Origin: Patescibacteria group bacterium
Lineage (GTDB): Bacteria; Patescibacteriota; Minisyncoccia; Phycocordibacterales; Phycocordibacteraceae
Direction of reading: 5' to 3'
Assembly (NCBI GenBank): GCA_004296925.1
Contig: SCVI01000037.1
Coordinates: 1 to 44,923, forward strand
DNA length: 44,923 nucleotides
Shown: positions 11,950-44,923 of the stretch, in pieces
How the letters are laid out: every line of letters begins with the position of its first letter
How positions within the stretch are numbered: the first letter of the stretch is position 1
Translations under genes and position numbers: made by a program
Notes under the pieces: generated by a model
Told to the model about the DNA's origin: nothing
Seen by the model: the letters and a program-made list of their open reading frames with translations, nothing else
The model's database searches: none

Positions 11950-12684
11950 CTATTTAGTATCTTTTTCCTTAAGTGCTTTAACTGCGGCCTGCTGTTCGGC
12001 CTCTTGTTTCGACTTTCCTTCTCCTTCAGCAACAAGGATATCGCCTACTGATACTGAAATAACAAAACGCTTATCATGATCTGGTCCGTCAGCTCGTACG
12101 GTTTCATATTTTGGGGTCATTCCATACTTTGCTTGTGCAAATTCTTGAAATGCACTTTTTGCGTCTCTCCATGCGCCTGTCTTTAACACTTCTGTAATAC
12201 GAGGAAAGACGTGAGAAGCAATAAATGCGTCGGCCGCTTTGTATCCTTGATCCATGTAAAGCGCTCCTACAATTGCTTCAAAAGCATTCGCAAGAATAGT
12301 CGAACGGGCACGCCCTACATCTTTTGCTTCACCTCTCGAAAGTAACAAACACTCATTTACGCCAAGCTCTTCAGCGATACCCGCAAGCATCACTGCATTT
12401 ACTAACGCAGCACGATAACTTGTGAGCTCTCCTTCGTTTTCCTCGGGATAAGCGCGATACAAATAATCAGTAACAGAAAGTTCAAGTACCGCATCCCCCA
12501 AAAACTCGAGACGTTCATTGTGCTCAGTTGGCCCGTTTCCGTTTTTTCCTGCTGCAACTCTTGCCTCATTCAAATATGAACGGTGCGTAAATGCAGTTTC
12601 AAGAAAACGAGCGTCCTTAAAAGAAACACCTGCTTTTTTCTCAAACGCTTTTATGGCATCGGTATGTGCAGTATCTACAGACAT
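11950..12684 (-). CDS. rnc: ribonuclease III
   Basis: 244 aa with the RNase III signature NERLEFLGDAVLE and a C-terminal dsRBD (GPDHDKRFVISV...GEGKSKQEAEQQAA). Confidence 0.95.
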   Translation of the reverse strand: MSVDTAHTDAIKAFEKKAGVSFKDARFLETAFTHRSYLNEARVAAGKNGNGPTEHNERLEFLGDAVLELSVTDYLYRAYPEENEGELTSYRAALVNAVMLAGIAEELGVNECLLLSRGEAKDVGRARSTILANAFEAIVGALYMDQGYKAADAFIASHVFPRITEVLKTGAWRDAKSAFQEFAQAKYGMTPKYETVRADGPDHDKRFVISVSVGDILVAEGEGKSKQEAEQQAAVKALKEKDTK

Positions 12685-13562
12685 ATTTTTTTGGCGGTGG
12701 CGACACCAGTTTCAATAACCGGCAGAAGATCATCGTAAAGCGAAATAGTACCCAATTCTTCTTCTGAAAACCAGCGTGCCTCTTCTATACCACCCACTTT
12801 TGTTACTATAAGGTTAGTTGGAGCGGTTGCGCATCCAAGGAAGTAGCCAACGGAACGTATAACTTTTCCTGTAGCCGGGTCGTGCGCAATGTACTCGTGT
12901 TCTCCTATTGGTTCAACCTTTTCTACTGACACACCAAGCTCTTCCTTAAGAGCCCTAAGTGCTGCATGTTCAGATAATTCACCCTCAATACATTTTGATT
13001 TTGGAAGTGTCCATTTTTTGAATGCATCAAGTACAAGTGCAACTTTAATCGCCCCCTCCTCTGGCGCAACAAGTAGAAGTCCTCCTAAATGTTCGTGCTT
13101 TAACGGGACAGTTTCTTTAAGTGCGTCATTTTTACCAGGACTTCCAATGGAACGATACACTGCGCCCAACACTCCGTTTACAAATTTTCCACTTGTGTCA
13201 CCGCCGTATGCCTTTGCAAGTTCAATAGCTTCATTCAGTGCAACCTTAGGAGGGACTGCATTTTTATCTCCAAAAAGAAGCTCGTAAAGCCCTACGCGAA
13301 GCACATTCCTATCAATAGGAGCGATATTTTCAATAGGCCATTGCGGTGCAGAAACAGTTATCATCTGATCAATTTCTTCCTTTTTCGCGATGATTCCTAA
13401 GAGTAACCCTTCTGCGAAAGGTATGTCAGCATCACCATCAAGAAATTCTGAAGTATTTCTTAACAAAATTGCATGAGCTGCATCTCCTGTAAATGTGTTC
13501 GTTGAGTCACACTCGAAGAGTGTCTGAAGTACTTGAGATCGTGATAAATGTCGTGAAGCCAT
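12675..13562 (-). CDS. nusB: NusB antitermination factor fused to a C-terminal Nudix-like domain
   Basis: Residues 1-140 are NusB-like (RNVLRVGLYELLF..., NEAIELAKAYGGDTSGKFVNGVLGAV). Residues ~150-295 carry a Nudix-box-like segment, LPKSKCIEGELSEHAALRALKEELGV. It overlaps the rnc start by 10 nt. Confidence 0.85.
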   Translation of the reverse strand: MASRHLSRSQVLQTLFECDSTNTFTGDAAHAILLRNTSEFLDGDADIPFAEGLLLGIIAKKEEIDQMITVSAPQWPIENIAPIDRNVLRVGLYELLFGDKNAVPPKVALNEAIELAKAYGGDTSGKFVNGVLGAVYRSIGSPGKNDALKETVPLKHEHLGGLLLVAPEEGAIKVALVLDAFKKWTLPKSKCIEGELSEHAALRALKEELGVSVEKVEPIGEHEYIAHDPATGKVIRSVGYFLGCATAPTNLIVTKVGGIEEARWFSEEELGTISLYDDLLPVIETGVATAKKICL

Positions 13563-18596: not shown

Positions 18597-20342
18597 ATGT
18601 CTGAAAACGAACTACTAGAACATAAGCGACACACTCTAGCCCATCTTCTTGCGGCGGCAGTTATGAAGTTGTGGCCAGACACTAAGCGAACTATCGGTCC
18701 CGCAATTGACAATGGTTTTTATTTTGACTTTGAATTTACGCATCCACTCTCTGAGAAAGATTTTGGAAAAATTGAAAAAGAAATGCGAAAACTCTTGCCG
18801 ACGTGGACTTCGTTTGAGCGAAGTGAGCTAACTTCTGATGAAGCTAAAAAAGAGTATCCAAATAACCAATACAAACACGAACTCATTGACGAATTTACTG
18901 CTGACGGCTCAAAGGTAAGTTTCTACAAATCAGGAGAATATTCGGACCTTTGCCGTGGTGGACACGTAGAAAATCCTAAAGAAGAAATTGCGTCAGATTC
19001 CTTTAAGCTAGACAGGATCGCAGGAGCTTACTGGAGGGGCGACGAGAAAAACCCAATGCTGACTCGCATTTATGCACTCGCTTTCGATACAAAAGAAGAA
19101 TTGGATCAGTATATTGCAATGCAGGAAGAAGCGCTCAAACGTGATCATAGAAAACTTGGAAAGGAACTTGATCTCTTCACATTCTCAGATCTTGTAGGTT
19201 CTGGACTTCCCTTGTTTACACCCAAAGGAACCGTGCTTCGCGAAGAAATACACACATTCTCACAAGCATTGAGAACTTCGAGAGGATTCCAAAAAGTATG
19301 GATCCCCCACATAACGAAAACCGATCTATATAAACGTTCGGGACATTGGGACAAATTCGGAGATGAATTATTTCTCGTCAAAAGCCAAGAGACGACTGAC
19401 GAGTTTGTATTGAAACCAATGAACTGTCCACATCATACTCAAATATACGCAGGCAAAAATCGCAGCTATCGCGACCTCCCTCTTCGTTTTCTTGAAACTA
19501 CTGCAGTGTATCGTGATGAAAAAAAAGGAGAGCTTTCAGGACTTTCTCGAGTACGATCCATAACGCAGGACGATAGCCATGTGTTTTGTCGACCAGACCA
19601 GATTGAAGTGGAGTATCAAGCAATCATGAATATGGTTGTGGAATTCTATAAAGTTGTGGATATGAAATTCCGAGCTCGCCTTTCTTTCCGCGATTCACAA
19701 ACTCCTGAAAAATATTTTGGAGAGGAATCGCTCTGGGATATGGCTCAAGAAAAACTTGAAACTATCGCAAAAAGTGGCGGATTCGAATATTTTATTGCTA
19801 AAGGTGAAGCCGCATTCTACGGACCAAAAATTGATTTCATGGCAACAGACGCACTTGGACGTGAACACCAACTTGCAACAGCACAGTTAGATTTCGTTCA
19901 GCCTGCGCGTTTTGAACTTACATATACCGATAGTGATGGAACAGAAAAAACTCCCGTCATGATTCACCTTGCTATTGCAGGTTCACTTGAACGATTTCTG
20001 TCGGTGTATATAGAGCATACTGCTGGCGCCTTCCCGCTTTGGGTTGCACCAGTTCAAGTAAAAATACTTCCTGTTTCAGAAAAGCATAATGAATATGGAG
20101 CTTCTGTTTTTGCTACGCTCAAAAATGCTGGTATTCGTGTTGAGATTGATGATGCGAACGAATCCCTCGGAAAGAAAATCAGAAATGCCAAAAAAGAAAA
20201 AATTCCTTACCTCTTTGTAATTGGAGATAAGGAAGTAGAAGCTGGAACTGTATCGGTAGAAAACAGAGATGGTTCAGAAGGAGCGCAGGAACTTTCAGTA
20301 ATTGTAAAATCTCTGCAAGAAAAAATTATTGCCCGTTCCTAA
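18597..20342 (+). CDS. thrS: threonyl-tRNA synthetase lacking the N-terminal TGS domain
   Basis: 581 aa. It begins in the editing/second additional domain (RHTLAHLLAAAV). Class II core motifs are present (FRDE.., RVRSITQDDSHVF, GPKIDF) along with a C-terminal anticodon-binding domain. Confidence 0.95.
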   Translation: MSENELLEHKRHTLAHLLAAAVMKLWPDTKRTIGPAIDNGFYFDFEFTHPLSEKDFGKIEKEMRKLLPTWTSFERSELTSDEAKKEYPNNQYKHELIDEFTADGSKVSFYKSGEYSDLCRGGHVENPKEEIASDSFKLDRIAGAYWRGDEKNPMLTRIYALAFDTKEELDQYIAMQEEALKRDHRKLGKELDLFTFSDLVGSGLPLFTPKGTVLREEIHTFSQALRTSRGFQKVWIPHITKTDLYKRSGHWDKFGDELFLVKSQETTDEFVLKPMNCPHHTQIYAGKNRSYRDLPLRFLETTAVYRDEKKGELSGLSRVRSITQDDSHVFCRPDQIEVEYQAIMNMVVEFYKVVDMKFRARLSFRDSQTPEKYFGEESLWDMAQEKLETIAKSGGFEYFIAKGEAAFYGPKIDFMATDALGREHQLATAQLDFVQPARFELTYTDSDGTEKTPVMIHLAIAGSLERFLSVYIEHTAGAFPLWVAPVQVKILPVSEKHNEYGASVFATLKNAGIRVEIDDANESLGKKIRNAKKEKIPYLFVIGDKEVEAGTVSVENRDGSEGAQELSVIVKSLQEKIIARS

Positions 20343-20547
20343 TCTTTGCTAGGAGAATATCGCCCTCATTTTTAATCTCTTCCCTGTCTTCAATTCTTAA
20401 ATTTGGACTATTAATGAGTCGGCCTGCTGCGTTAATTCTCTCAACAATGTCGGGTGAGCTTGGGTTTTCTATAATACCCAAAAAAGCACGTCTTACTCTT
20501 TCAAGAAAAGTAGGATAATCTTCTTCAAGTAGTGATTCTTTACTCAT
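20326..20547 (-). CDS. hypothetical protein (73 aa)
   Basis: A strong SD (GGAGG) lies 4 nt upstream of the ATG, which is rare in this window. The ORF overlaps the thrS 3' end convergently by 17 nt. No family recognised. Confidence 0.6.
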   Translation of the reverse strand: MSKESLLEEDYPTFLERVRRAFLGIIENPSSPDIVERINAAGRLINSPNLRIEDREEIKNEGDILLAKIRNGQ

Positions 20548-20699: not shown

Positions 20700-20745
20700 C
20701 ACGGTCTAGTATAATTATGCTATAGCATAATTATACTAGACCGTG
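20700..20745. repeat. 46-bp perfect palindrome (23-bp arms, no spacer)
   Basis: CACGGTCTAGTATAATTATGCTA|TAGCATAATTATACTAGACCGTG. I checked every one of the 23 base pairs by hand and the symmetry breaks at 20699/20746. It contains TATAAT on both strands. Confidence 0.9.
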
Positions 20746-20791: not shown

Positions 20792-23700
20792 TCAGCCAAC
20801 TACTTCAAATGCTTGAGCAAGAGCGAGCTTTACACCAGTAAATGGTGAGCTATAGACAGCGTCGAGCGAATGAGTGAACACTGTTACCAATCGAGCGAGC
20901 TCGTCGTCAGTTATCTTCTTTGCCGCTTCGGCAAGCTCTAGGTCTGACGGTGTTTTATTATCATGACGTGCTCTGTAAAGAGTATCCAAGACGGTTGCGG
21001 TTGAGGTCATTAATGATGTTGGACGAACGCCATCATGTTCAAGTGAGCGTATTATGCTGAACGCAGATGTTCTGTCGCCCTTAAGTACCGCCTTAGCAAA
21101 CGCGCTTGCTACGGTATCGTCTATCGTAAATTCTTTTACTTGTGGCAATACCTCTGAAATTGAGATTGTATCTTCTTTAGAAGAAGTTACTTTCTTAGGA
21201 TTCTTGTCTACAAGTTGACTAAAGCGCTCTGCAGTAAGCATGATCCAACCGTTTTCACGAGGAATAGTTCTTACCGCTTCGTTCAAAATTTCTCCAAAGA
21301 ATAAGAGGGTCTCTGCTCTGTCTGACGAATATTCAGACGCGAGCAATACAGATTCAGGAGACATTAATACTCCTGATGCGTGAGCACGAGATTCAATTAC
21401 ATCAGCAATCGCTGGAATACCGTCGACAGCTTTCACAGCAGCTACTGAAATATCTGCTTGTCTTGCAATCGGCTCAGTTTTTATAGCCAAAGGAGCTGGA
21501 GTAATAGTAAGTGGTGTAAGAGTTTCGGTTTCGTATCGAGGAGCAACACTTGCATCATTTTGCGAGAAATCATCTCCATGCGACACAGTAGATGGATACG
21601 ATGTACCGTACATGTGTTCGCGTGTTCTTGAGTGATTACCTGAATTGTTATTATTTGCTACAGGGAGGTTGTTGAAACGCGAATATAGATATCGTATTCC
21701 TCCTCTGCCAGCTATAGCGTACGCAATAATTGCAGCAAAAAGTCCTATAGCGAGCCAGAACAAGACCGTAAGAACAGGGCCAGCAGCAAAACCAGTGTAA
21801 GGAATTTGTGCTAACGAGACGAACGCCAATGGTTGGTTGATAGGTTGTTTGTAGAGCACTACATTTGGTGGATTGTATCCCCCACCACAATTACTCGTAC
21901 ATCCAGCAGTACCTACAGTAACCGTTGCAGAACAATTCACCGTCCCCGAAGGACCTGTAAATGTTCCAGTAAACGTAGTGTCTGATGAAGGGAATACTTC
22001 AGCGGATCCAGACGATACTGGTGAAACAGCGCCAACTCCACCAGTAATTGTTCCTGATGTTGCGTTTACTGATGTCCACGACACATTAATACTTTGTCCT
22101 GATGTGATTGATGTTCTTGAAAGCGAGATGGTACATGCAGGTCCTGATGGTGGTACGACTGTAACTATTGTTTGGCATGTTGCAGTATCACCGAAAGAAT
22201 TGGTAACCGTCATCGTGTAAGTGCGTGTACTTGGAACAGATACCGCAGTAGATCCTGATGCAATTGGAGTAATGGCACCAACAGAATGATTGATGGTCGC
22301 AGAAACAGCGTTTGTGGTTGTCCAAGAAAGCGCTGATGCATCTCCAGCTAACACCGATGAAGGATTTGCTGAAAGTACGCATGAAGGAGTTGGGTTTGGA
22401 GTCACCGTAACTGTAGAACCACACAATACGCTACCTCCCGGACCTGTTGCAGTCAGACTGTAGGTATGAGTTCCTACACCCAAGTGTGGTGAAAAATTAT
22501 ATGAACCAGAAAGTGCGAGTGGTGTTGGAATTGCCGGCGACGCAGTAGTAGGTGTGATAGTTATAGAAGTCGCATTGGTGGTAGTCCACGAAATTGAAGA
22601 TTTAGAAAGATCGAGTGAACACACTGGCACAGAGCTTGTGGTTACAGTTATAGTTTTCTCACATGTGACGGTCCCACCTGCGCCGGTGGCGGTGAGTGTA
22701 TATGTTTTAGTAACAGAAGGCGCCACAATAATTGCACCGTTCGCAACCGAAACTGTCCCAACTCCCTGATTTATTGAAATCGTACTAGCATTTGTTGTAG
22801 TCCATGCCAATGTGGATGAACCTCCAGGAGAGATAGTTGAAGGTGTTGCGGTTAACGTACAGCTTGGAGCAGATGGTAGTGGATCAACGTGAATTGTTCC
22901 CTGACAAATAACAGAACCGCCAGCGCCTGTTGCAGTAAGAGTATAGGAATGAGTACCAACACTGAGAACTGGGCTAAACGCGTAACTACCATTCAAACCT
23001 GGAGACGGAACTGTTGGTGAACCCGTGGTTGAAACAATGGTAACTGAAGAAGTGTTTGTAGTAGCCCATGAAATGTTCGTTGCAGAAAAATCAAGGGTAC
23101 ACACTGGCACTGGTGGTGGTGTGACAGTTATACCTTGCGCACAAGTTACGGTGCCGCCAGGACCTGTTGCTGTAAGTGTGTACACTTTCGAACTAGTAGG
23201 AGAAACAGATGTTGAACCGTTTGCGGTTACTCCACCAATGCCTTGGTTAATACTTACCGATGAAGTGTTTGTGGTCGTCCAAGAAAGTGTTGAAGAACCT
23301 CCAGTGGTAATCGCAGTTGGATTAGCTGAGAGCGTACATGTTGGAGCAGGTTGCGGTGTAATTGTTACCGTAACAGCACAAAGCACGCTACCACCAGGAC
23401 CTGTTGCAGTAAGGTTATAGGAATGAGTTCCTGAACCGAGCTGAGGCACGAAATTATATGAACCTGAAAGCGCTTGAGGAGAAGGGATAGCTGGTGAACC
23501 TGTTGGAGAAATAATCGTAACTGACGTTGCGTTTACAGTACTCCAAATCAATGTGTCTTTAGAAAGATCTGCGGAACACACTGGTGTTGGTGGTGGAGTA
23601 ACAACAACTGTTTTCTGACAAACAACACCGCCGTATGCTCCATTTCCAGTAAGTTTATATGTAGTAGTTACTGAAGGTGACACCACCTTGGTACCTATAG

Positions 23701-24076
23701 TTGGAACACTACCAATACCATTATCGATAGATGCGCTAGAAACAAATGCCATACTCCAACTCAGCGTTACCGATTCACCTTGATTGATAGTGCTGCCAGG
23801 TAGAGCCTCTAGAGTACATGAAGGAGTTGGGTCGTAACCGCCGCCACCGCCGCCACCGTCAAGATTTGGGTGGTACAGATCATTATTGAAACCACCGCCA
23901 CCAAACCAAATTGTGACATTGCCACAACCACCGCAACTAGCAGATGCATCCGCAGAAATAGAGGAGTCGTTAAATGAGACCGATGCGACGTCGAGTGTTA
24001 CCCATGCTGCTCCTACAAAAAGAGCGACGAAGGCGATGCTCAAGAATGCTGTTTTTTTAATAGTTTGGAATTTCAT
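20792..24076 (-). CDS. giant surface protein: signal/TM anchor, eight Cys-bracketed Ig-like repeats, IPYTG motif, TM helix, 304-aa cytoplasmic domain
   Basis: 1094 aa. The N-terminal hydrophobic segment is AFLSIAFVALFVGAAWV. Repeat modules span residues ~87-715. VSLAQIPYTG is followed by the helix FAAGPVLTVLFWLAIGLFAAIIAYAIAG and RGG. The C-terminal third is non-repetitive. Confidence 0.85.
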   Translation of the reverse strand: MKFQTIKKTAFLSIAFVALFVGAAWVTLDVASVSFNDSSISADASASCGGCGNVTIWFGGGGFNNDLYHPNLDGGGGGGGYDPTPSCTLEALPGSTINQGESVTLSWSMAFVSSASIDNGIGSVPTIGTKVVSPSVTTTYKLTGNGAYGGVVCQKTVVVTPPPTPVCSADLSKDTLIWSTVNATSVTIISPTGSPAIPSPQALSGSYNFVPQLGSGTHSYNLTATGPGGSVLCAVTVTITPQPAPTCTLSANPTAITTGGSSTLSWTTTNTSSVSINQGIGGVTANGSTSVSPTSSKVYTLTATGPGGTVTCAQGITVTPPPVPVCTLDFSATNISWATTNTSSVTIVSTTGSPTVPSPGLNGSYAFSPVLSVGTHSYTLTATGAGGSVICQGTIHVDPLPSAPSCTLTATPSTISPGGSSTLAWTTTNASTISINQGVGTVSVANGAIIVAPSVTKTYTLTATGAGGTVTCEKTITVTTSSVPVCSLDLSKSSISWTTTNATSITITPTTASPAIPTPLALSGSYNFSPHLGVGTHTYSLTATGPGGSVLCGSTVTVTPNPTPSCVLSANPSSVLAGDASALSWTTTNAVSATINHSVGAITPIASGSTAVSVPSTRTYTMTVTNSFGDTATCQTIVTVVPPSGPACTISLSRTSITSGQSINVSWTSVNATSGTITGGVGAVSPVSSGSAEVFPSSDTTFTGTFTGPSGTVNCSATVTVGTAGCTSNCGGGYNPPNVVLYKQPINQPLAFVSLAQIPYTGFAAGPVLTVLFWLAIGLFAAIIAYAIAGRGGIRYLYSRFNNLPVANNNNSGNHSRTREHMYGTSYPSTVSHGDDFSQNDASVAPRYETETLTPLTITPAPLAIKTEPIARQADISVAAVKAVDGIPAIADVIESRAHASGVLMSPESVLLASEYSSDRAETLLFFGEILNEAVRTIPRENGWIMLTAERFSQLVDKNPKKVTSSKEDTISISEVLPQVKEFTIDDTVASAFAKAVLKGDRTSAFSIIRSLEHDGVRPTSLMTSTATVLDTLYRARHDNKTPSDLELAEAAKKITDDELARLVTVFTHSLDAVYSSPFTGVKLALAQAFEVVG
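21899..23821 (-). repeat. in-frame coding tandem array (alternating A/B modules, ~480-bp super-period)
   Basis: Related DNA strings recur, for example GGACCTGTTGCAGT at 22440 and 23397, with a variant at 22923. The protein modules repeat with conserved Cys pairs. Confidence 0.8.
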
Positions 24077-24083
24077 AAATATA

Positions 24084-24806
24084 TTATTGGGTCAATGGTT
24101 CTTCGTATAAAAATTCTGCATGCACCACATATCGTTTCGTTTTCTCCTTACCGAATGAATCGCAGGTAACAAGAGTAAGTGTTTGCGCGCCACCACCAAT
24201 TTCAATTGATGCGGTATCAACGTCAACGTAATCAATCGACACTGCGCGGTAATGATAACGGATTGTCTGTGAAGAAACGATGATAGCGTCACCAGGACGA
24301 ACATTTTGTAGACCGTTAAAGGCTTTAAATGCCTGATTGCGAACAACCGGCAAATAACTTTGATGACCAAAAATAAACATCCCTGAATTCTCACCTAAGA
24401 GTGCTGAACCAGGGTAACGAACCGCCCCCTTAAGAAGGGCGGTATCGAGAGATGTAATATCTTTTTGAGTTGGATTATTCACCGAAATATCGATACCAAC
24501 TTTTGGAATAACGATTCGTTGCGGCATATTTGCTACTGATTGAGAAGCAGTGTAGGTGGTCTCTGCTCGTGTGAGAGACGTGTTTGTTGTAGGCTCTGAT
24601 GCAAGTGGCGCTGAAGCGCTTAGTGTAACCGTAGATGCATTTGCCACATTTGTATTTTGAGCTGTAGAAGATTCAGGAACAAAATCAATCACAAAAAGAA
24701 CTACCGCGATGACAAAAAATGTAATCAAAAAAACAACCAAGAATGCCCACGGCTTTGTGCTTACTGCGTGATTTTTGAATTGGTGCTTAAGCATGATTCT
24801 TTTCAT
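24084..24806 (-). CDS. sortase-family transpeptidase
   Basis: 240 aa. It has an N-terminal TM anchor (WAFLVVFLITFFVIAVVLFVI), a catalytic His context FIFGH, a Cys context LTLVTC (TLxTC) and a downstream Arg (KRYVVHAEF). It ends 7 nt upstream of the giant protein gene. Confidence 0.85.
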   Translation of the reverse strand: MKRIMLKHQFKNHAVSTKPWAFLVVFLITFFVIAVVLFVIDFVPESSTAQNTNVANASTVTLSASAPLASEPTTNTSLTRAETTYTASQSVANMPQRIVIPKVGIDISVNNPTQKDITSLDTALLKGAVRYPGSALLGENSGMFIFGHQSYLPVVRNQAFKAFNGLQNVRPGDAIIVSSQTIRYHYRAVSIDYVDVDTASIEIGGGAQTLTLVTCDSFGKEKTKRYVVHAEFLYEEPLTQ

Positions 24807-24839
24807 ATTACATCACAAAATATCATTTGTCAAGTGCCC

Positions 24840-26888
24840 TTATTGTCTTGCTGGAACTGCAGAAGGCAGGTCTTCCCTTCTCACTCTTAACACGTCTGGT
24901 ACACCGTTATTGTTGGTATCAACTAGCACAAGCGGGATAGTTGGATCTTCTGGATTTACAACGTTTCCAGGACCATTAATAAGTTCTTGCCACTGAGCCT
25001 CACTTCTTACCTGTATACTTCTACCGCTTGGAGATTCTATATACGGATGTGAGAAATGTCCCGCTCTGTGACCGCCCGGCGTGTTTTCAATACTCATACA
25101 CCAATACGAAGTTCTGCCTGTCACAGGATCTGTGTAGGTCATAAGTACAAAACGAAGTTCTGGTGGAATATTTCCTTGGTAATTTGGAATAAGAATACTT
25201 TCAGTGCCACGGCGGTCTTCACCTAAAATAAGGTCACGCACTCGTTCTTGTGCCTCTGCCAATGACATACCTCGTTCATCAAAAATCAAGTATGCGTTCG
25301 TTGGTACATCGCACGATCCTCCTCCTGGACGAGGGACACAGATAATTGGTTCGCGTCTAAGATACACCTCTGTAGGTGGACGTGGTGGTGGCACTACCTC
25401 AACAGGTGGCGGCACTACGACTACACTTTCTGCTGGAGGCGGAGTAGGTCGTAAAATAATCTCATCGCCCACCTGCATAAAGTTATTACACTCATCAGCT
25501 CGAAGAATTGTGATGCGATGAAGTACGCCCTCTGAGTCTTCAGCAGTAAAATAAAATCGTTCAGCAGGATACGTCACGATCGCAGTACGAGCTCCTGGAA
25601 CCGAAACGCGAGAAGTATCGAGAAGGAAATCTTTTTCACCAACACCAAGAACGCTTCTGTTACCACCTAACATCCATTCACCGCTCTGACGTGGTCCTAT
25701 TTGGATCATCTCAGGATTTGCTATACCTCTTTGTGCATAAAGTGCAGCAATGAATTCGTCTCTAAACTCTGGTCGCATACCACCCCTGACAGCACCGTCA
25801 GCAGCACTTTGAATGTGCGCATCATCAAATGCTTCAATGCGAGAATTTGCGAATGGCTCGCTGCCGAGTCGAGAAACTACATCCGGTTCGCTTTCGATTT
25901 GAGACGCCGCATTTTCAGCAGTATCGGCTGGCGATACAAAGTATCGTCTTCCTTCTATCTCACCTTGCGTGTTAAATCCACGAGAATTAGATCCTGATGA
26001 ATATTCCGATTCAGAAGGAACAATGAATGTGTGCGTACCATCTGACGTTACAGGTAACTCAGCTGCCATAGCATTCTTAACTCCAAAAAATTCTTCAACA
26101 ATTTTACCTCCTGCACCGTCTATAAGAAACGAGTTCCCAACAGCGTTGCGAATACCTAAATCGTTTACAATCTCAGTTGCAACACTGTGCCCGAGTGTGG
26201 CACCAGCACCAATACCAAGCGCACCACTCACTGCAAGTCGCGCATATCTCCCATTTCGTATTTCTACATAGCGCGATTTAAGAAGATTCCAATTGTTCTT
26301 TTCAAACTCTTGAAGTGATTGTCCTTCCTCGCGTGCTTGTGCTTCGAGTACTTTTGAGTCCGCGATTTTTTGGTCTGCTCCGCGATTATTAAAATACCCA
26401 ATTATTTTTCCAAGTTTTCTTGGAGCCTTTTTTCCAAGTGCGAGTTGGACACCGATACCTACTACAGCACCTACCGCAAATTTAACAGGCCCAACAACAG
26501 CAGCTACGGTTGGCACAGCAACCGCATATTTTTGCGCGTGCTCAACCATACCAAGCTTTCCTGACCATGCACCCAAAAGGCCTTCCTCACTAATCTTAAA
26601 CTCTGCTGCTGCATCCCATCCGGCAGTCTCAAAAAGAAAATTTCTATAATTTTGAAAAGCGTCATCGTAACGAGCACGAGAAGCGTCGATGTTTTCGTTA
26701 GCTGAGCGTAACCCTGACCAACCACGAGGGCGAGCATATTCTACCCGCGCATCCCAAAGAAGTTTTCCAAGCGCTTTTCTTCGAGTGTCACGAATGGAAG
26801 CAGACTTGTCACGAAAATCTTTTTTAGGAAGTGTTTCGTCTGAAGACAATGCTCTTTGTATTGGGTTTTCAGCTAAATTTGTTGCCAT
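24840..26888 (-). CDS. orphan 682-aa membrane protein (first gene of the sortase operon)
   Basis: The long ORF has no competing frame. There is no N-terminal signal peptide. Two internal hydrophobic segments are present (AVAVPTVAAVVGPVKFAVGAVVGIGVQLAL and LAVSGALGIGAGATLG), plus a Pro-rich spacer PTPPPAESVVVVPPPVEVVPPPRPP. No family recognised. Confidence 0.75.
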   Translation of the reverse strand: MATNLAENPIQRALSSDETLPKKDFRDKSASIRDTRRKALGKLLWDARVEYARPRGWSGLRSANENIDASRARYDDAFQNYRNFLFETAGWDAAAEFKISEEGLLGAWSGKLGMVEHAQKYAVAVPTVAAVVGPVKFAVGAVVGIGVQLALGKKAPRKLGKIIGYFNNRGADQKIADSKVLEAQAREEGQSLQEFEKNNWNLLKSRYVEIRNGRYARLAVSGALGIGAGATLGHSVATEIVNDLGIRNAVGNSFLIDGAGGKIVEEFFGVKNAMAAELPVTSDGTHTFIVPSESEYSSGSNSRGFNTQGEIEGRRYFVSPADTAENAASQIESEPDVVSRLGSEPFANSRIEAFDDAHIQSAADGAVRGGMRPEFRDEFIAALYAQRGIANPEMIQIGPRQSGEWMLGGNRSVLGVGEKDFLLDTSRVSVPGARTAIVTYPAERFYFTAEDSEGVLHRITILRADECNNFMQVGDEIILRPTPPPAESVVVVPPPVEVVPPPRPPTEVYLRREPIICVPRPGGGSCDVPTNAYLIFDERGMSLAEAQERVRDLILGEDRRGTESILIPNYQGNIPPELRFVLMTYTDPVTGRTSYWCMSIENTPGGHRAGHFSHPYIESPSGRSIQVRSEAQWQELINGPGNVVNPEDPTIPLVLVDTNNNGVPDVLRVRREDLPSAVPARQ

Positions 26889-26942: not shown

Positions 26943-26971
26943 ACAATATCACGGTAAAATGGCTTTGTCAA
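26943..26971 (-). promoter_or_regulatory. candidate sigma70-type promoter for the sortase operon
   Basis: On the minus strand: GGCTTGACAAAGCC..., with TTGACA (26966-26971), a 17-nt spacer and TATTGT (26943-26948). It lies ~55 nt upstream of the 26888 ATG. Confidence 0.4.
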
Positions 26972-27072: not shown

Positions 27073-28122
27073 ATGCAAAATGAACAGAACAAGTCCCCTT
27101 TTGGTAATGCTATCGTACGTACGCTCGCAATCTTCGGATTTCTCGCGGTCGTTATCGTTGGTATGTGGGGTAGCGTACAAATCGCACGTGGAATTCCAAA
27201 CGCTTTTTCATCACTTGCCTCTGCAATGGTGAGCTTTACTTCTATCTTTGTCCCAGCAGGAGAGACCATCTCGCTTTCTGCTGCTTCACTCAGCGTTGAA
27301 TCAAATAAGCCAATTACTATCTCTTGGTTCCACGATAAGAAGAGCGTAGAAGGTTCATATGTATTTCGATACAATTGTGTGAATGACGCATACTTTGCAT
27401 CTGCCGTTGCGACCGGAACACCTACTACTGTTTACTGTAACGTGCCGTTCAACTTCATTAATTCAAGCAACTCAATAACGATCACACCAATTTCAACCTC
27501 AAATCGTTTTATTGACGTACAGGTATTCATCGACTTTATTCCAAATGGTGCATCTCAAGCAACGGTCACAGGTCAAACCACTTTCACTATAGTAAATACA
27601 GGAGTAACGGTAAGTCCAGGAACTATTCCTACAACACCAGTACCTACAACACCAACTCCTACAACACCACGTCCTATAACTCAAGGACCTGAAACACGAG
27701 TCACCTACCCTATTGGTGGTGCGCGCGCATCAGATCCAAACGGTTATGTAGACCTTTCTGCACGTGTTATTGAAGTTGGAGTAGTAGATAAAACAACAGG
27801 CGTATTTACAGCAAGTTCTACTCCAAGTAGAGCAAACACACGCATCGCAGTGCGATTCGCAGTTGAAAACCTCGGTACAAAAACATCACCACAGTTTGAT
27901 TTCAACGCGATTCTTCCAACACAACCATCAAACATATTCTCAGCACCTATGCAGCAAGCCCTCAATCCTGGCGACCGTATTGAATTCACCGTTGGTTTTG
28001 ACAGCTTTAATTCAGCTAATCCAGACGGAGTATTCATCATAAATGTTGATCCTTCAAACCGCATCAACGAGAGAAACAAAGACAACAATATTGTGAGATA
28101 CACAATCAATACAAGACCGTAA
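27073..28122 (+). CDS. membrane-anchored secreted protein with C-terminal CARDB-like domain
   Basis: 349 aa. It has an N-terminal TM/signal anchor (LAIFGFLAVVIVGMWG), a PTTPVPTTPTPTTPRP linker, and a C-terminal ~120 aa reading DLSARVIEVG...AVENLG...LNPGD...NVDPSNRINERNKDNN, which matches the CARDB pattern. Confidence 0.75.
   Translation: MQNEQNKSPFGNAIVRTLAIFGFLAVVIVGMWGSVQIARGIPNAFSSLASAMVSFTSIFVPAGETISLSAASLSVESNKPITISWFHDKKSVEGSYVFRYNCVNDAYFASAVATGTPTTVYCNVPFNFINSSNSITITPISTSNRFIDVQVFIDFIPNGASQATVTGQTTFTIVNTGVTVSPGTIPTTPVPTTPTPTTPRPITQGPETRVTYPIGGARASDPNGYVDLSARVIEVGVVDKTTGVFTASSTPSRANTRIAVRFAVENLGTKTSPQFDFNAILPTQPSNIFSAPMQQALNPGDRIEFTVGFDSFNSANPDGVFIINVDPSNRINERNKDNNIVRYTINTRP
27628..27672 (+). 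repeat. 15-bp x3 in-frame tandem repeat (CCTACAACACCA-nnn) encoding (PTTPx)3
   Basis: cct aca aca cca gta / cct aca aca cca act / cct aca aca cca cgt, read directly from the sequence. Confidence 0.7.
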
Positions 28123-28328: not shown

Positions 28329-28360
28329 CATCAAAATCAGGTGCGGGCTCCAAGCAAAAA

Positions 28361-28390
28361 CACAAAACTCCCTACACGGGGAGTTTTGTG
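28361..28390. terminator. terminator hairpin between the convergent mini-ORF (+) and gyrB (-)
   Basis: CACAAAACTCCC-tacac-GGGGAGTTTTGTG. On the minus strand it is followed by TTTTTGCTT, so it is a good gyrB terminator. It is weaker on the plus strand. Confidence 0.6.
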
Positions 28391-28473
28391 TTGACGGGTA
28401 CCCACCAAACACAATACTGATCTAAATTTCAAATACACCTTGAGGAATACAGTGAAAAATTACCTAAAGCTTC

Positions 28474-42865: not shown

Positions 42866-44923
42866 TTAAATTTCTCTGTATCCTGGAAGCACGCGGACTG
42901 TCGTTGAAACAGATGGGTTGAAAGAACCCGCAATACACGAAAATGTGTAGGTGCTCTCGCCGCTCACTGTTACTGATTGAACTCCTGATTTCAGAGATGA
43001 CGAAATACCAGGGCCCGATATGCTGCAGGCATCTACTGCGCCAGCAACCGACCATGTAATTGTGGTTCTGTCGCCCGTACGAACGAGAGCTGGTGTTGCG
43101 CGAAGTGAGAGTGTTGGTGCAACCACAGACACTGTAGCCGAACTGTATGCGTTATTACCGGCCGCGTCACGACACGTTAGGGTGTAGAACGTCGTACTAA
43201 GCGGACTTACAGTAGTAGTGCCTGATGTACGATCACCAGTAGCAAATCCTCCTCCTGTGCATGACGTAGCATTTGCAGAAATCCATGAAAGCGTTGCTGA
43301 AGTACCACGGACAATTGTTGAAGGGAATGCTGTAAGTAATGCTGATACCCCTCCTGAGGTAGGTGGCGTGGGTGGAGTAGGTGGCGTAGGTGGGGTAGGT
43401 GGCGTGGGTGGAGTTACACATGAAGCTCCGGAACAAACATTGGTAGTACATTGAGCAGTTACAGTTGCAGCCGAGGATCCAGTACCAGTCGTGGTAGTAG
43501 TTCCTCCAGGAATCGTTGTAGTAGTTGTAGTGTTAGTTGTATTTGTGTTAGCTGTTCCAAATCCTGCAAAGAAATTGTAGTTCGTTTGATTACTTCCACC
43601 TCCGCCAGAACTATAAGAATCTTTTCTCACAAGCGAAGCTCCGGTATATGCATCGTAGAAGTAGAAAGTGTTTATAGGTTGTCCTGTTGGACTAACTTTT
43701 TCACGGACTTCAACATTACAACAGCCTCCCGCAGGAGTAATTTCATTACATTCTGCAACTAAACCTCCAATTCCTTCAGTAAAACCAACGCCGTCTTGCG
43801 TATCACCGGAACTACCAACTTTAGTACCACCAGAGCACTGCATTGCTCCTTGGAGTGCTACTGATACACCATTAGTAGTGGTGTTCGGAGTGTTGGTAGT
43901 GGTAGTGGTTGGATTACTCGTAGTAGTCGTATTAGATACCGAGGTATCGGTAACCACAACTGAAGCTGTTTTTATACCTTGCGAAGAGTACGACTTCGAT
44001 ACGGAAGCGCTCGTACCTGACAATCCTTCGGTTCCACTCCATGAATAAGTGTAATTTCCTGATCCGCCAGATGGATTCACTGTCCAAGTCACCGAAGAGC
44101 CGGGCGCCGGTGTTAATGATGAAGGCGCACACGATGCTGAAAGAGTTGGCGAAGTAACATACACCGTCGTATACGCAGAAGCAGTAGGCGCTGGTGATGT
44201 TGGTGGAGGTGTTGTTCCGTCGCTGCAGTTATACAGATCGGTTCTAATAGTGCAATCAACAATTTTGTTTACTTTACACACATTGGTGCTGGTGCTACAT
44301 GTCTTGCCTTCTGGATTTACCGGACAGTTTGGTACTGAGGAATATGCTTTATTGGGATCAGTTACAGGACATGCGAAGTCACTAATGTCAGACTCTCTAT
44401 ATTGCCATGTACCCGACGTAGCTGAAGCGACACACTCGTAGTTTGTGACATTTCCATATACGGTCCCTAGTCCGGAACAATCGTTTGGACCTTCAAAAGC
44501 GTGGCTTTTGCAAACAAGCCCTATTTGATTGGAAGTGCAACTGTTTCCTTGTGGAGGACTAATCCCTGCAACATCCTCACAAACAGGTTTTTGTATGTTG
44601 ACGGCATTGCTTCCACCTGTACAAATTTTGGTGTTGTAGGGATCGCCTTTTTGTTGCCACGTGCCAGCGCTGGATGATGTGACGGAAGAATTTGCACCAC
44701 TGCAGGTAATGGAATAGTTGGTAGTGCTGTTTAAGGGTCCCGTAGAAACGGAACCTGACGTACTGCCGGAAGTTTCAAAGCCTGTTCCCTCGCATGAAAC
44801 GGCGTTAGTTGAGGCCCATGTAAGTGTCGATGATTGATTGGACCGTATACTCTCCGGATTTGCGGTCAATGTAACAGTCGGCGCCGGAGGCGGATTCACC
44901 GTGAGCGTTGCCGAAGCTGTCGC
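42866..44923 (-). CDS. second giant secreted repeat protein (5' end outside the window)
   Basis: The frame stays open to the window edge upstream of the listed Met. It contains Ig-like modules related to the 20792-24076 protein (SSTLTWASTNAVSC, TSATLSWISANATSC), a Cys-rich segment, a PKD-like segment (NPSGGSGNYTYSWSG), Thr/Asn low-complexity runs and a (TPP)6 linker. Confidence 0.8.
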   Translation of the reverse strand, partial: ATASATLTVNPPPAPTVTLTANPESIRSNQSSTLTWASTNAVSCEGTGFETSGSTSGSVSTGPLNSTTNYSITCSGANSSVTSSSAGTWQQKGDPYNTKICTGGSNAVNIQKPVCEDVAGISPPQGNSCTSNQIGLVCKSHAFEGPNDCSGLGTVYGNVTNYECVASATSGTWQYRESDISDFACPVTDPNKAYSSVPNCPVNPEGKTCSTSTNVCKVNKIVDCTIRTDLYNCSDGTTPPPTSPAPTASAYTTVYVTSPTLSASCAPSSLTPAPGSSVTWTVNPSGGSGNYTYSWSGTEGLSGTSASVSKSYSSQGIKTASVVVTDTSVSNTTTTSNPTTTTTNTPNTTTNGVSVALQGAMQCSGGTKVGSSGDTQDGVGFTEGIGGLVAECNEITPAGGCCNVEVREKVSPTGQPINTFYFYDAYTGASLVRKDSYSSGGGGSNQTNYNFFAGFGTANTNTTNTTTTTTIPGGTTTTTGTGSSAATVTAQCTTNVCSGASCVTPPTPPTPPTPPTPPTPPTSGGVSALLTAFPSTIVRGTSATLSWISANATSCTGGGFATGDRTSGTTTVSPLSTTFYTLTCRDAAGNNAYSSATVSVVAPTLSLRATPALVRTGDRTTITWSVAGAVDACSISGPGISSSLKSGVQSVTVSGESTYTFSCIAGSFNPSVSTTVRVLPGYREI
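43358..43414 (-). repeat. 9-bp x6 in-frame tandem repeat encoding (TPP)n
   Basis: The plus strand reads AGGTGGCGT GGGTGGAGT AGGTGGCGT AGGTGGGGT AGGTGGCGT GGGTGGAGT, which encodes PPTPPTPPTPPTPPTPPT on the minus strand. Confidence 0.8.

Follow-up and report, generated by a model that had tools for sequence, protein, structure and literature searches.

The closest described counterparts of the locus analyzed here are the housekeeping class A and E sortases of monoderm bacteria with their LPXTG or LAXTG proteins, the class C sortases of pilus loci and, for one part of one protein, the clamp-loader subunits of DNA replication. What defines a sortase substrate is a tripartite signal at the very end of the protein, namely a motif, a transmembrane (TM) helix and a short positively charged tail, and the stub that stays in the membrane is viewed as disposable. 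In streptococci, the membrane stub left by sortase A cleavage can signal (PMC11502775). We investigated a stretch of 44,923 nucleotides (nt), hereafter the window, of a contig from a Patescibacteria metagenome-assembled genome (MAG), which encodes a sortase and, immediately behind it, a putative substrate of 1094 amino acids (aa). All coordinates are window positions. The putative substrate bears an IPYTG motif and a TM helix, and then continues into a long tail whose predicted fold resembles the lid and collar domains of clamp-loader subunits.

An earlier note on this DNA had placed three minus-strand open reading frames (ORFs) at 24840-26888, 24084-24806 and 20792-24076, separated by gaps of 33 nt (24807-24839) and 7 nt (24077-24083), and this layout was confirmed. 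In database records the ORFs correspond to a 682-aa protein (EPO56_01725), a protein named 'sortase' at NCBI (TAJ14790.1) and the 1094-aa protein (EPO56_01715 / TAJ14789.1). The note had regarded the three genes as one module and had stated that neither partner of the sortase fits the pattern of a sortase substrate.

No Pfam or NCBIfam family reached its threshold with the 1094-aa protein, which is annotated as hypothetical and reads as a type I membrane surface protein. Judged by eye, its N-terminus (aa 1-33, MKFQTIKKTAFLSIAFVALFVGAAWVTLDVASV, 23978-24076; this and all further features of the gene lie on the minus strand) is signal-peptide-like, with a basic n-region (MKFQTIKK) and a hydrophobic h-region. 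Eight tandem immunoglobulin (Ig)-like repeats of about 80 aa follow (aa 84-723, 21908-23827), recognized by cysteine spacing and repeat alignment; each is bracketed by a cysteine pair, which is consistent with export of the ectodomain. The repeats reached no Pfam model. They matched phrog_2155 'virion structural protein' with E=2e-64 as well as virion proteins of the Synechococcus phages S-PM2 and ACG-2014j with 39-47% identity over about 100 aa, suggesting a generic Ig-like surface repeat of the same type that is used on phage particles. The same Ig-like repeats are present in a second large Cys-rich and Thr/Pro-rich protein at 42866-44923 (minus strand), which runs past the end of the window, had no Pfam match and carries no PYTG/TM signal at its C-terminus (...VLPGYREI*).

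Behind the repeats of the 1094-aa protein, a Cys/Gly knot and a conserved stalk (NPPNV.L...P..QPLAFVSLAQ) precede the sortase-type motif IPYTG (aa 758-762, 21791-21805), which stands in the context ...NPPNV.L...P..QPLAFVSLAQIPYTGFAAGP; the motif-bearing peptide stretches read ...SLAQIPYTGFAAG... and SLAQIPYTGFAAGP. Hydropathy places a TM helix at aa 767-789 (PVLTVLFWLAIGLFAAIIAYAIA, 21710-21778), followed by GRGGIR. A short positively charged tail that would end the protein is missing at this point, and GRGGIR is instead followed by about 300 aa with two folded domains. The total of 304-305 residues beyond the TM helix agrees with the earlier note, which had described a motif and TM helix with 304 more residues behind them.

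The motif is the best conserved part of the protein. Every full-length family member examined contains Q[IV]PYTG[FLIV], and the consensus derived from 160 unique sequences is L.Q[iv]PYTGFeaGP. In the same sequences the mean frequency of the top residue was 0.77 for the motif, the highest value of the protein, 0.49 for the TM helix and 0.16 for the linker behind it. The TM helix shows the conserved pattern ..lT..fWla....sa..aY, and its conservation equals that of the stalk. Each of the 40+ loci contains exactly one protein combining [ILV]P[YH]TG with a TM helix, a count that covers the genome loci recovered. Its signal-peptide-like N-terminus and its TM helix behind an [ILV]PxTG motif together make the 1094-aa protein the obvious candidate substrate, with only the long conserved tail being aberrant; to say that neither partner conforms to the pattern of a substrate was therefore too strong. 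No LPXTG-anchor model of NCBIfam matched the protein at E<=1, where only weak matches to holA and dnaX were obtained.

We modeled the tail with AlphaFold2 from 15 homologues. The model contains two confidently predicted domains, which disordered and variable linkers separate from the membrane and from each other. Domain A (aa 890-958, 21203-21409) is small and alpha/beta-helical and resembles the AAA+ lid, clamp-loader domain II, with a predicted local distance difference test (pLDDT) score of about 90 or more. Domain B (aa 987-1093, 20798-21118; pLDDT >90) is a six-helix domain whose predicted fold resembles the clamp-loader collar, domain III of delta and gamma/tau. When the model was compared with the PDB by Foldseek, the top 45 matches were all clamp-loader subunits, the best with E=2.8e-5 and probability 1.0 over about 210 columns. 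They comprised E. coli gamma/tau, delta and delta', B. subtilis delta and RFC. In the independent viral library BFVD, phage DNA polymerase III delta and RFC proteins were matched, and a viral 148-aa gamma/tau fragment superposed on the tail model with a root mean square deviation of 2.9 A over 116 columns.

Curated profiles pointed in the same direction. Among 15 family members, holA (TIGR01128) was the top NCBIfam match for 13 (best E 6.5e-6) and dnaX_nterm was matched by 6. The family consensus matched holA with E=2.5e-8, followed by two dnaX models, PF12169 (DNA_pol3_gamma3) and PF21694 (DNA_pol3_delta_C). The tail covers only positions ~182-261 of the 316 positions of the holA profile. Domain I, the AAA+-like part that interacts with the clamp, is absent from the model, where the TM helix and a disordered linker precede the lid-like domain. 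Domain A is conserved in the PYTGF subgroup of the family; the PYTGL subgroup keeps the collar-like domain and has domain A replaced by a short element, YS.Y.GF.SF...LSI.DIVKGL. We conclude that the tail resembles a lid-plus-collar module (domains II-III) of clamp-loader type, as predicted from model and profiles, and is not itself a clamp-loader subunit.

The middle gene (24084-24806, minus strand) encodes a membrane-anchored protein of 240 aa with the hallmarks that had been pointed out before: a TM anchor, FIFGH, LTLVTC and a downstream arginine. PF04203 was matched with E=1.3e-18 (67.4 bits versus a cut-off of 26.6), and the protein also passed the sortase family model TIGR01076 (40.8 versus 39.35). 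Behind the N-terminal TM helix follows DFVPE, conserved as D[FY]VPE, and the catalytic triad His148 (FIFGH), Cys215 (LTLVTC) and Arg225 is at least 90% conserved in 34 orthologues. All NCBIfam models of sortase classes (A-F and GN) remained far below their cut-offs, with at most 42.4 bits versus 140-165; the best was class E with 42.4 versus 160. The closest PDB relative by sequence is a class C sortase (E=5.8e-7), and the best solved-structure relatives belong to classes C and A (E 1e-6 to 1e-2). Judged by these profiles, the 240-aa protein is a bona fide sortase that is assignable to no described class.

We then considered how far the pairing of sortase and PYTG protein extends. With the tail alignment, 37 loci were retrieved from species-representative genomes. 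The titles of 36 of them name Patescibacteria, Paceibacterota, Kaiserbacteria, Parcubacteria or 'Saccharibacteria', while that of L039 (SZUA-485) reads just 'MAG: bacterium isolate'; the suggestion that the locus may be specific to small-genome bacteria of the candidate phyla radiation type was thus borne out, as it appears to be specific to Patescibacteria. An exhaustive search with a hidden Markov model (HMM) yielded 964 cluster representatives at E<=1e-3, of which 254 reached E<=1e-30. In all 964 the tail forms the C-terminus of proteins of 600-1500 aa. All full-length members among the best 150 carry Q[IV]PYTGF, apart from a more divergent subgroup with Q[IV]PYTG[LIV]D/ELGP. The named family members that we checked are all labelled 'hypothetical protein'. 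A word-indexed homologue search with the tail missed the window's own TAJ14789.1, which is part of the collection; a negative of this search, as with the 682-aa protein, therefore makes a family look smaller than it is.

According to tblastn and ORF maps, the common gene order is gyrB(+), CARDB-like(-), an optional gene, sortase(+), an optional gene, PYTG protein(+), thrS(-) and often dnaE. The sortase gene lies upstream of the PYTG gene in all 36 loci with upstream DNA; seven further loci, whose contigs end inside the substrate gene, fall outside this count. The gap between the two genes usually measures 3-50 nt, and one gene intervenes in 7 loci. This linkage persists where the tails are only 22-28% identical. 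It also persists in the divergent PYTGL subgroup, of which the three members examined show the same gyrB-...-sortase-...-thrS-dnaE context. As far as the surveyed sequences tell, the conserved unit is a two-gene sortase-substrate cassette, a fixed part of the chromosome in a large clade of Patescibacteria of the Paceibacteria/Kaiserbacteria type. The neighborhood of gyrB, CARDB-like gene, sortase, PYTG protein, thrS and dnaE as a whole is ancient and conserved by descent.

The deposited names of some of these genomes deserve a comment. Titles of the form 'uncultured Candidatus Saccharibacteria', all TPA-assembled, are carried by L006, L010, L013-L016, L018, L019, L024-L026, L032, L036 and L038. 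In these 'Saccharibacteria'-titled MAGs, gyrB is 72-88% identical to that of the window, and their synteny is shared with MAGs titled Paceibacterota or Kaiserbacteria. Deposited taxonomy labels therefore look inconsistent.

The first gene of the row (24840-26888, minus strand) behaves differently from the other two. The 682-aa protein has a cytoplasmic helical N-region and distal Cys-containing domains with a Pro-rich spacer (aa ~480-506) between them. An internal TM pair had been reported for it; of the two segments, the one at 128-146 is clearly hydrophobic and the Gly/Ala-rich one at ~218-233 is weaker, which does not make a clear TM pair. The word search of 5.8 billion proteins returned the protein itself and one relative with 73% identity, irrespective of whether a single sequence or a 12-member alignment was used. 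Searching the loci by tblastn and HMM revealed distant relatives of 20-30% identity in about 13 of the ~40 related loci. They share the distal region with an invariant cysteine, the Pro-rich spacer and a second Cys-containing domain. The family, searched with 12 members in Pfam and also in NCBIfam, PDB profiles and PHROG, had no match; we discounted weak matches to Protein A and Chloroa_b-bind as noise from helical or hydrophobic sequence. With two sequences as input, AlphaFold2 gave an unusable model (pLDDT 31.7). The view that the partners can be assigned to no family thus holds, since neither the 682-aa nor the 1094-aa protein matches a curated one.

In locus L017 the distal region is found alone behind a classical signal peptide (…APAFA|QD), encoded by a gene between sortase and substrate. 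The distal region of the 682-aa protein is therefore most probably extracytoplasmic, and its N-terminal ~125 residues together with the hydrophobic segment may be taken as a membrane anchor. The three-gene order of the window recurs in the closest relatives (L001, L004-L009, L024 and L027). Other loci have no extra gene or carry unrelated ORFs in the slots flanking the sortase, several with Sec- or Tat-like signal peptides: 436 and 410 aa in L002 and L013, 377 aa in L020, 354 aa in L029 (Tat-like RRxFLG), 237-272 aa in L031, L034 and L037, and 248 aa in L039. None of them has a family assignment; those of L031, L034 and L037, and possibly that of L039, form a small family of their own that lacks an obvious signal peptide. 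In L002, the 436-aa ORF that separates sortase from substrate was considered as a relative of the 682-aa protein and rejected as unrelated. No sorting motif was detected in the 682-aa family or in the other slot proteins.

From this distribution, the 682-aa gene is best described as optional, fast-evolving and lineage-specific: it occupies a variable slot and is no core partner. The neighborhood survey suggested by the earlier note accordingly gave a divided answer: homologues of the 1094-aa protein are linked to the sortase in 36 of 36 loci, and those of the 682-aa protein were found in only about 13 of ~40. What the note had observed in the sequence stands, and so does the linkage of the sortase to the 1094-aa protein; the proposed three-gene module does not, as the 682-aa family is missing from about two thirds of the loci that keep sortase and substrate.

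With regard to function, we lean slightly towards a reading in which the sortase cleaves the PYTG protein, anchors its ectodomain to the wall and leaves a membrane stub with the clamp-loader-like tail. The Sec pathway would export the PYTG protein, and the TM helix would then retain the protein in the membrane. The sortase would cut between Thr761 and Gly762 and pass the ectodomain to the cell wall (lipid II or peptidoglycan), yielding an anchored Ig-repeat fibre or adhesin, while the fragment from Gly762 to the end would remain as a membrane-tethered stub bearing the clamp-loader-like domains. The collar is the oligomerization module of clamp loaders. The most economical role for the tail would therefore be in clustering or positioning the precursor, or in the stub after cleavage: before the cut it might oligomerize or cluster the precursor or bring it into place at the sortase, or it might persist afterwards as a cytoplasmic readout.

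Several observations weigh against this reading. Conservation of the TM helix is about as high as that of the folded domains, which is unusual for a segment to be discarded, and the classical short basic C-terminal tail is replaced by a predicted folded tail of ~300 aa. The holA matches stay below the curated cut-off of 80 bits, with 19 bits for the window protein and 33.6 for the family consensus, and seven divergent tails, from the PYTGL subgroup and from distant PYTGF members, had no holA match in NCBIfam. Alignment of the tail alignment with E. coli HolA alone by hhalign was not significant and a PDB sequence-profile search with the tail gave no match, so that the link to clamp loaders rests on the Foldseek and curated HMM matches. 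In addition, the whole neighborhood is vertically inherited. The 36 loci are therefore not independent, and linkage is weaker functional evidence than had been assumed before. The main rival builds on some of these points. It holds that the PYTG protein is a permanent, uncleaved type I transmembrane adhesin or receptor whose PYTG-TM part is a structural or oligomerization element, and that the sortase acts on proteins encoded elsewhere. In its favour, TM helix and juxtamembrane stalk are strongly conserved, unlike in typical sorting signals; a folded and conserved tail of ~300 aa is more sensible if still joined to the ectodomain; and since the entire neighborhood including gyrB, thrS and dnaE is syntenic, the linkage of sortase and PYTG gene can be passive. 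We nevertheless consider a permanent link unlikely, because the [ILV]PxTG positions are the most conserved of the protein and lie at the canonical distance before the TM helix, the sortase stays upstream of the substrate despite gene gain and loss around it, and none of the loci encodes another motif-bearing protein.

Cleavage may also serve as a switch for signalling or release, in which a cut at PYT|G uncouples the tail and the stub, possibly cut further by intramembrane proteolysis, meets the replication clamp loader or another cytoplasmic partner, coupling surface assembly or host contact to a cytoplasmic process. The resemblance of the tail to the collar and lid domains that mediate contacts between clamp-loader subunits would suit such a switch, as would the position of the gene between gyrB and thrS-dnaE in all relatives and the precedent of signalling stubs in streptococci (PMC11502775). 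This seems to us quite unlikely, given that synteny with replication genes may be coincidental, the clamp-binding domain I is absent, the similarity is sub-threshold and the partner is only hypothesized. Its most specific version, in which the sortase-freed, clamp-loader-derived fragment docks onto or competes within the DnaX/HolA/HolB collar and so links surface status to replication, is improbable. If true, it would tie surface status directly to DNA replication in organisms without most conventional regulators, with cleavage occurring during wall assembly or on host contact and with couplers unique to this clade of Patescibacteria. Highly improbable is the model put forward in the earlier note, an obligate three-gene surface-assembly module with the 682-aa protein as dedicated partner: the 33- and 7-nt spacing and the gene order shared by the closest relatives speak for it, and against it stand the patchy occurrence of the 682-aa family, its lack of a sorting motif, the unrelated ORFs in its slot and the version of L017, which follows the sortase and has a signal peptide in place of the N-terminal region. 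Since a separate known protein looks similar to the tail, we also considered an artefact in which mis-assembly, a frameshift or read-through joined an ordinary substrate to a holA-like gene downstream. We give it next to no credence: the same continuous ORF is found in 40+ independent assemblies and 964 representatives, always with the tail C-terminal to motif and TM helix, and the tail being always in frame with the ectodomain despite a disordered, variable linker excludes a fusion artefact.

The three genes had further been described as bracketed by a promoter and a palindrome. Both elements exist and the bracketing is plausible, yet it has no statistical support. The promoter-like element TTGACA-17-(TG)TATTGT lies upstream of the 682-aa gene (26943-26971, minus strand; 10 of 12 consensus matches). 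The region contains 19 promoter-like matches versus 14.7 +/- 3.8 in shuffles, which is no enrichment, and an equally good match in the 33-nt gap was rejected since it overlaps the ATG of the sortase gene; the upstream promoter is therefore only a candidate. The perfect palindrome of 46 base pairs (bp; 20700-20745) lies between the convergent 1094-aa gene and thrS, where it may form a bidirectional hairpin. It is unique in the window with no chance matches in shuffles, and folds as RNA with -35.9 kcal/mol (z=-7.4). Lacking a T-run, it is not a canonical intrinsic terminator. Its sequence is not conserved, and related loci carry other palindromes at the same place; the intergenic palindromes may be a lineage-wide terminator or a protein-binding site of changing sequence. 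In relatives a 28-bp palindrome unrelated to that of the window, TTTGTGC(T/A)ACACCC/GGGTGT(A/T)GCACAAA, recurs between the PYTG gene and thrS (L004 11106-11133, L006 11629-11656, L008 10991-11018); palindrome sites are also found at 7796-7839 in L005 and at 11205-11248 in L008.

Divergent to the cassette lies the gene of a 349-aa, N-terminally anchored CARDB-domain protein (27073-28122, plus strand; Pfam CARDB E=7.5e-8). It keeps this position in all loci with enough upstream sequence, so the idea that it may belong to the same island is upheld in the sense of a constant divergent neighbor; a PYTG motif was looked for in the protein and none was found. A strong intrinsic-terminator-like hairpin at 28359-28392 (minus strand), with a 14-bp stem followed by a T-run, lies ~80 nt downstream of gyrB and sets it apart from the CARDB-like gene, which is convergent to it. 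At the opposite end of the cassette, the annotated 73-aa ORF EPO56_01710 (20326-20547, minus strand) shares 17 nt with the 3' end of thrS. All its relatives are at least 90% identical, none of the ~40 related loci contains a homologue, and we regard it as doubtful and probably not a conserved gene. The surroundings consist of housekeeping genes: tRNA methyltransferase, G6PD, RNase R, SMC, RNase III, NusB-NUDIX, RNase HII, dnaE, thrS, gyrB, purD, pheST, purH, tsf, rpsB and a peptide chain release factor (PCRF/RF-1 domains). A single 295-aa ORF (12675-13562, minus strand) joins NusB to a NUDIX hydrolase domain, a fusion that is also called in distant relatives of the clade (L041 18864-19784, L042 18602-19537). 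An Rfam scan matched only tRNA-Thr.

A search of the literature on PYTG sortase motifs and on sortases of Patescibacteria found no description of motif or cassette, and in the literature searched the architecture of a sorting signal made of motif, conserved TM helix and clamp-loader-like cytoplasmic domain is previously undescribed. The cassette probably marks the main wall-linked surface fibre in a large group of uncultivated, ultra-small bacteria that are likely attached to hosts. It would also represent a case of a collar-type domain of clamp loaders recruited outside replication. With the clamp-loader subunits (HolA delta, DnaX gamma/tau, delta' and RFC), the tail shares a predicted fold that aligns to their domains II-III; it differs in hanging on a TM helix via a disordered linker, in having no domain I and in scoring far below the family cut-offs.

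Compared with the housekeeping class A and E systems of monoderms, the enzyme has the same anchored cysteine transpeptidase fold and His-Cys-Arg triad, and the putative substrate has the same succession of signal-peptide-like N-terminus, repetitive Ig-like ectodomain, [ILV]PxTG and hydrophobic helix. The differences lie in a sortase that passes no class model, an extended and near-invariant motif, Q[IV]PYTG[FL][ED]xGP, a conserved TM helix, a cytoplasmic region of ~300 aa with two domains instead of the short basic tail, and the fixed adjacency of enzyme and substrate with one motif-bearing gene per locus. Class C pilus loci resemble the cassette in that the sortase gene adjoins a substrate gene and in that the nearest solved structures belong to class C. 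Here a single motif-bearing gene is present instead of a set of major and minor pilins, and the substrate is a multi-repeat protein of 1,000-1,500 aa with a cytoplasmic domain. Neither an E-box nor a pilin motif was noticed, no search having been aimed at them. The signalling C-peptide of streptococci offers a parallel in that the membrane stub remaining after LPXTG cleavage by sortase A is functional there, as is proposed here; the streptococcal stub has ~30 residues and its TM helix acts on a histidine kinase (PMC11502775), whereas the stub proposed here would have ~300 residues including folded domains in the cytoplasm, and no kinase is encoded nearby. For proteins defined by a signal that ends them, such a conserved folded addition challenges the view that the stub is disposable.

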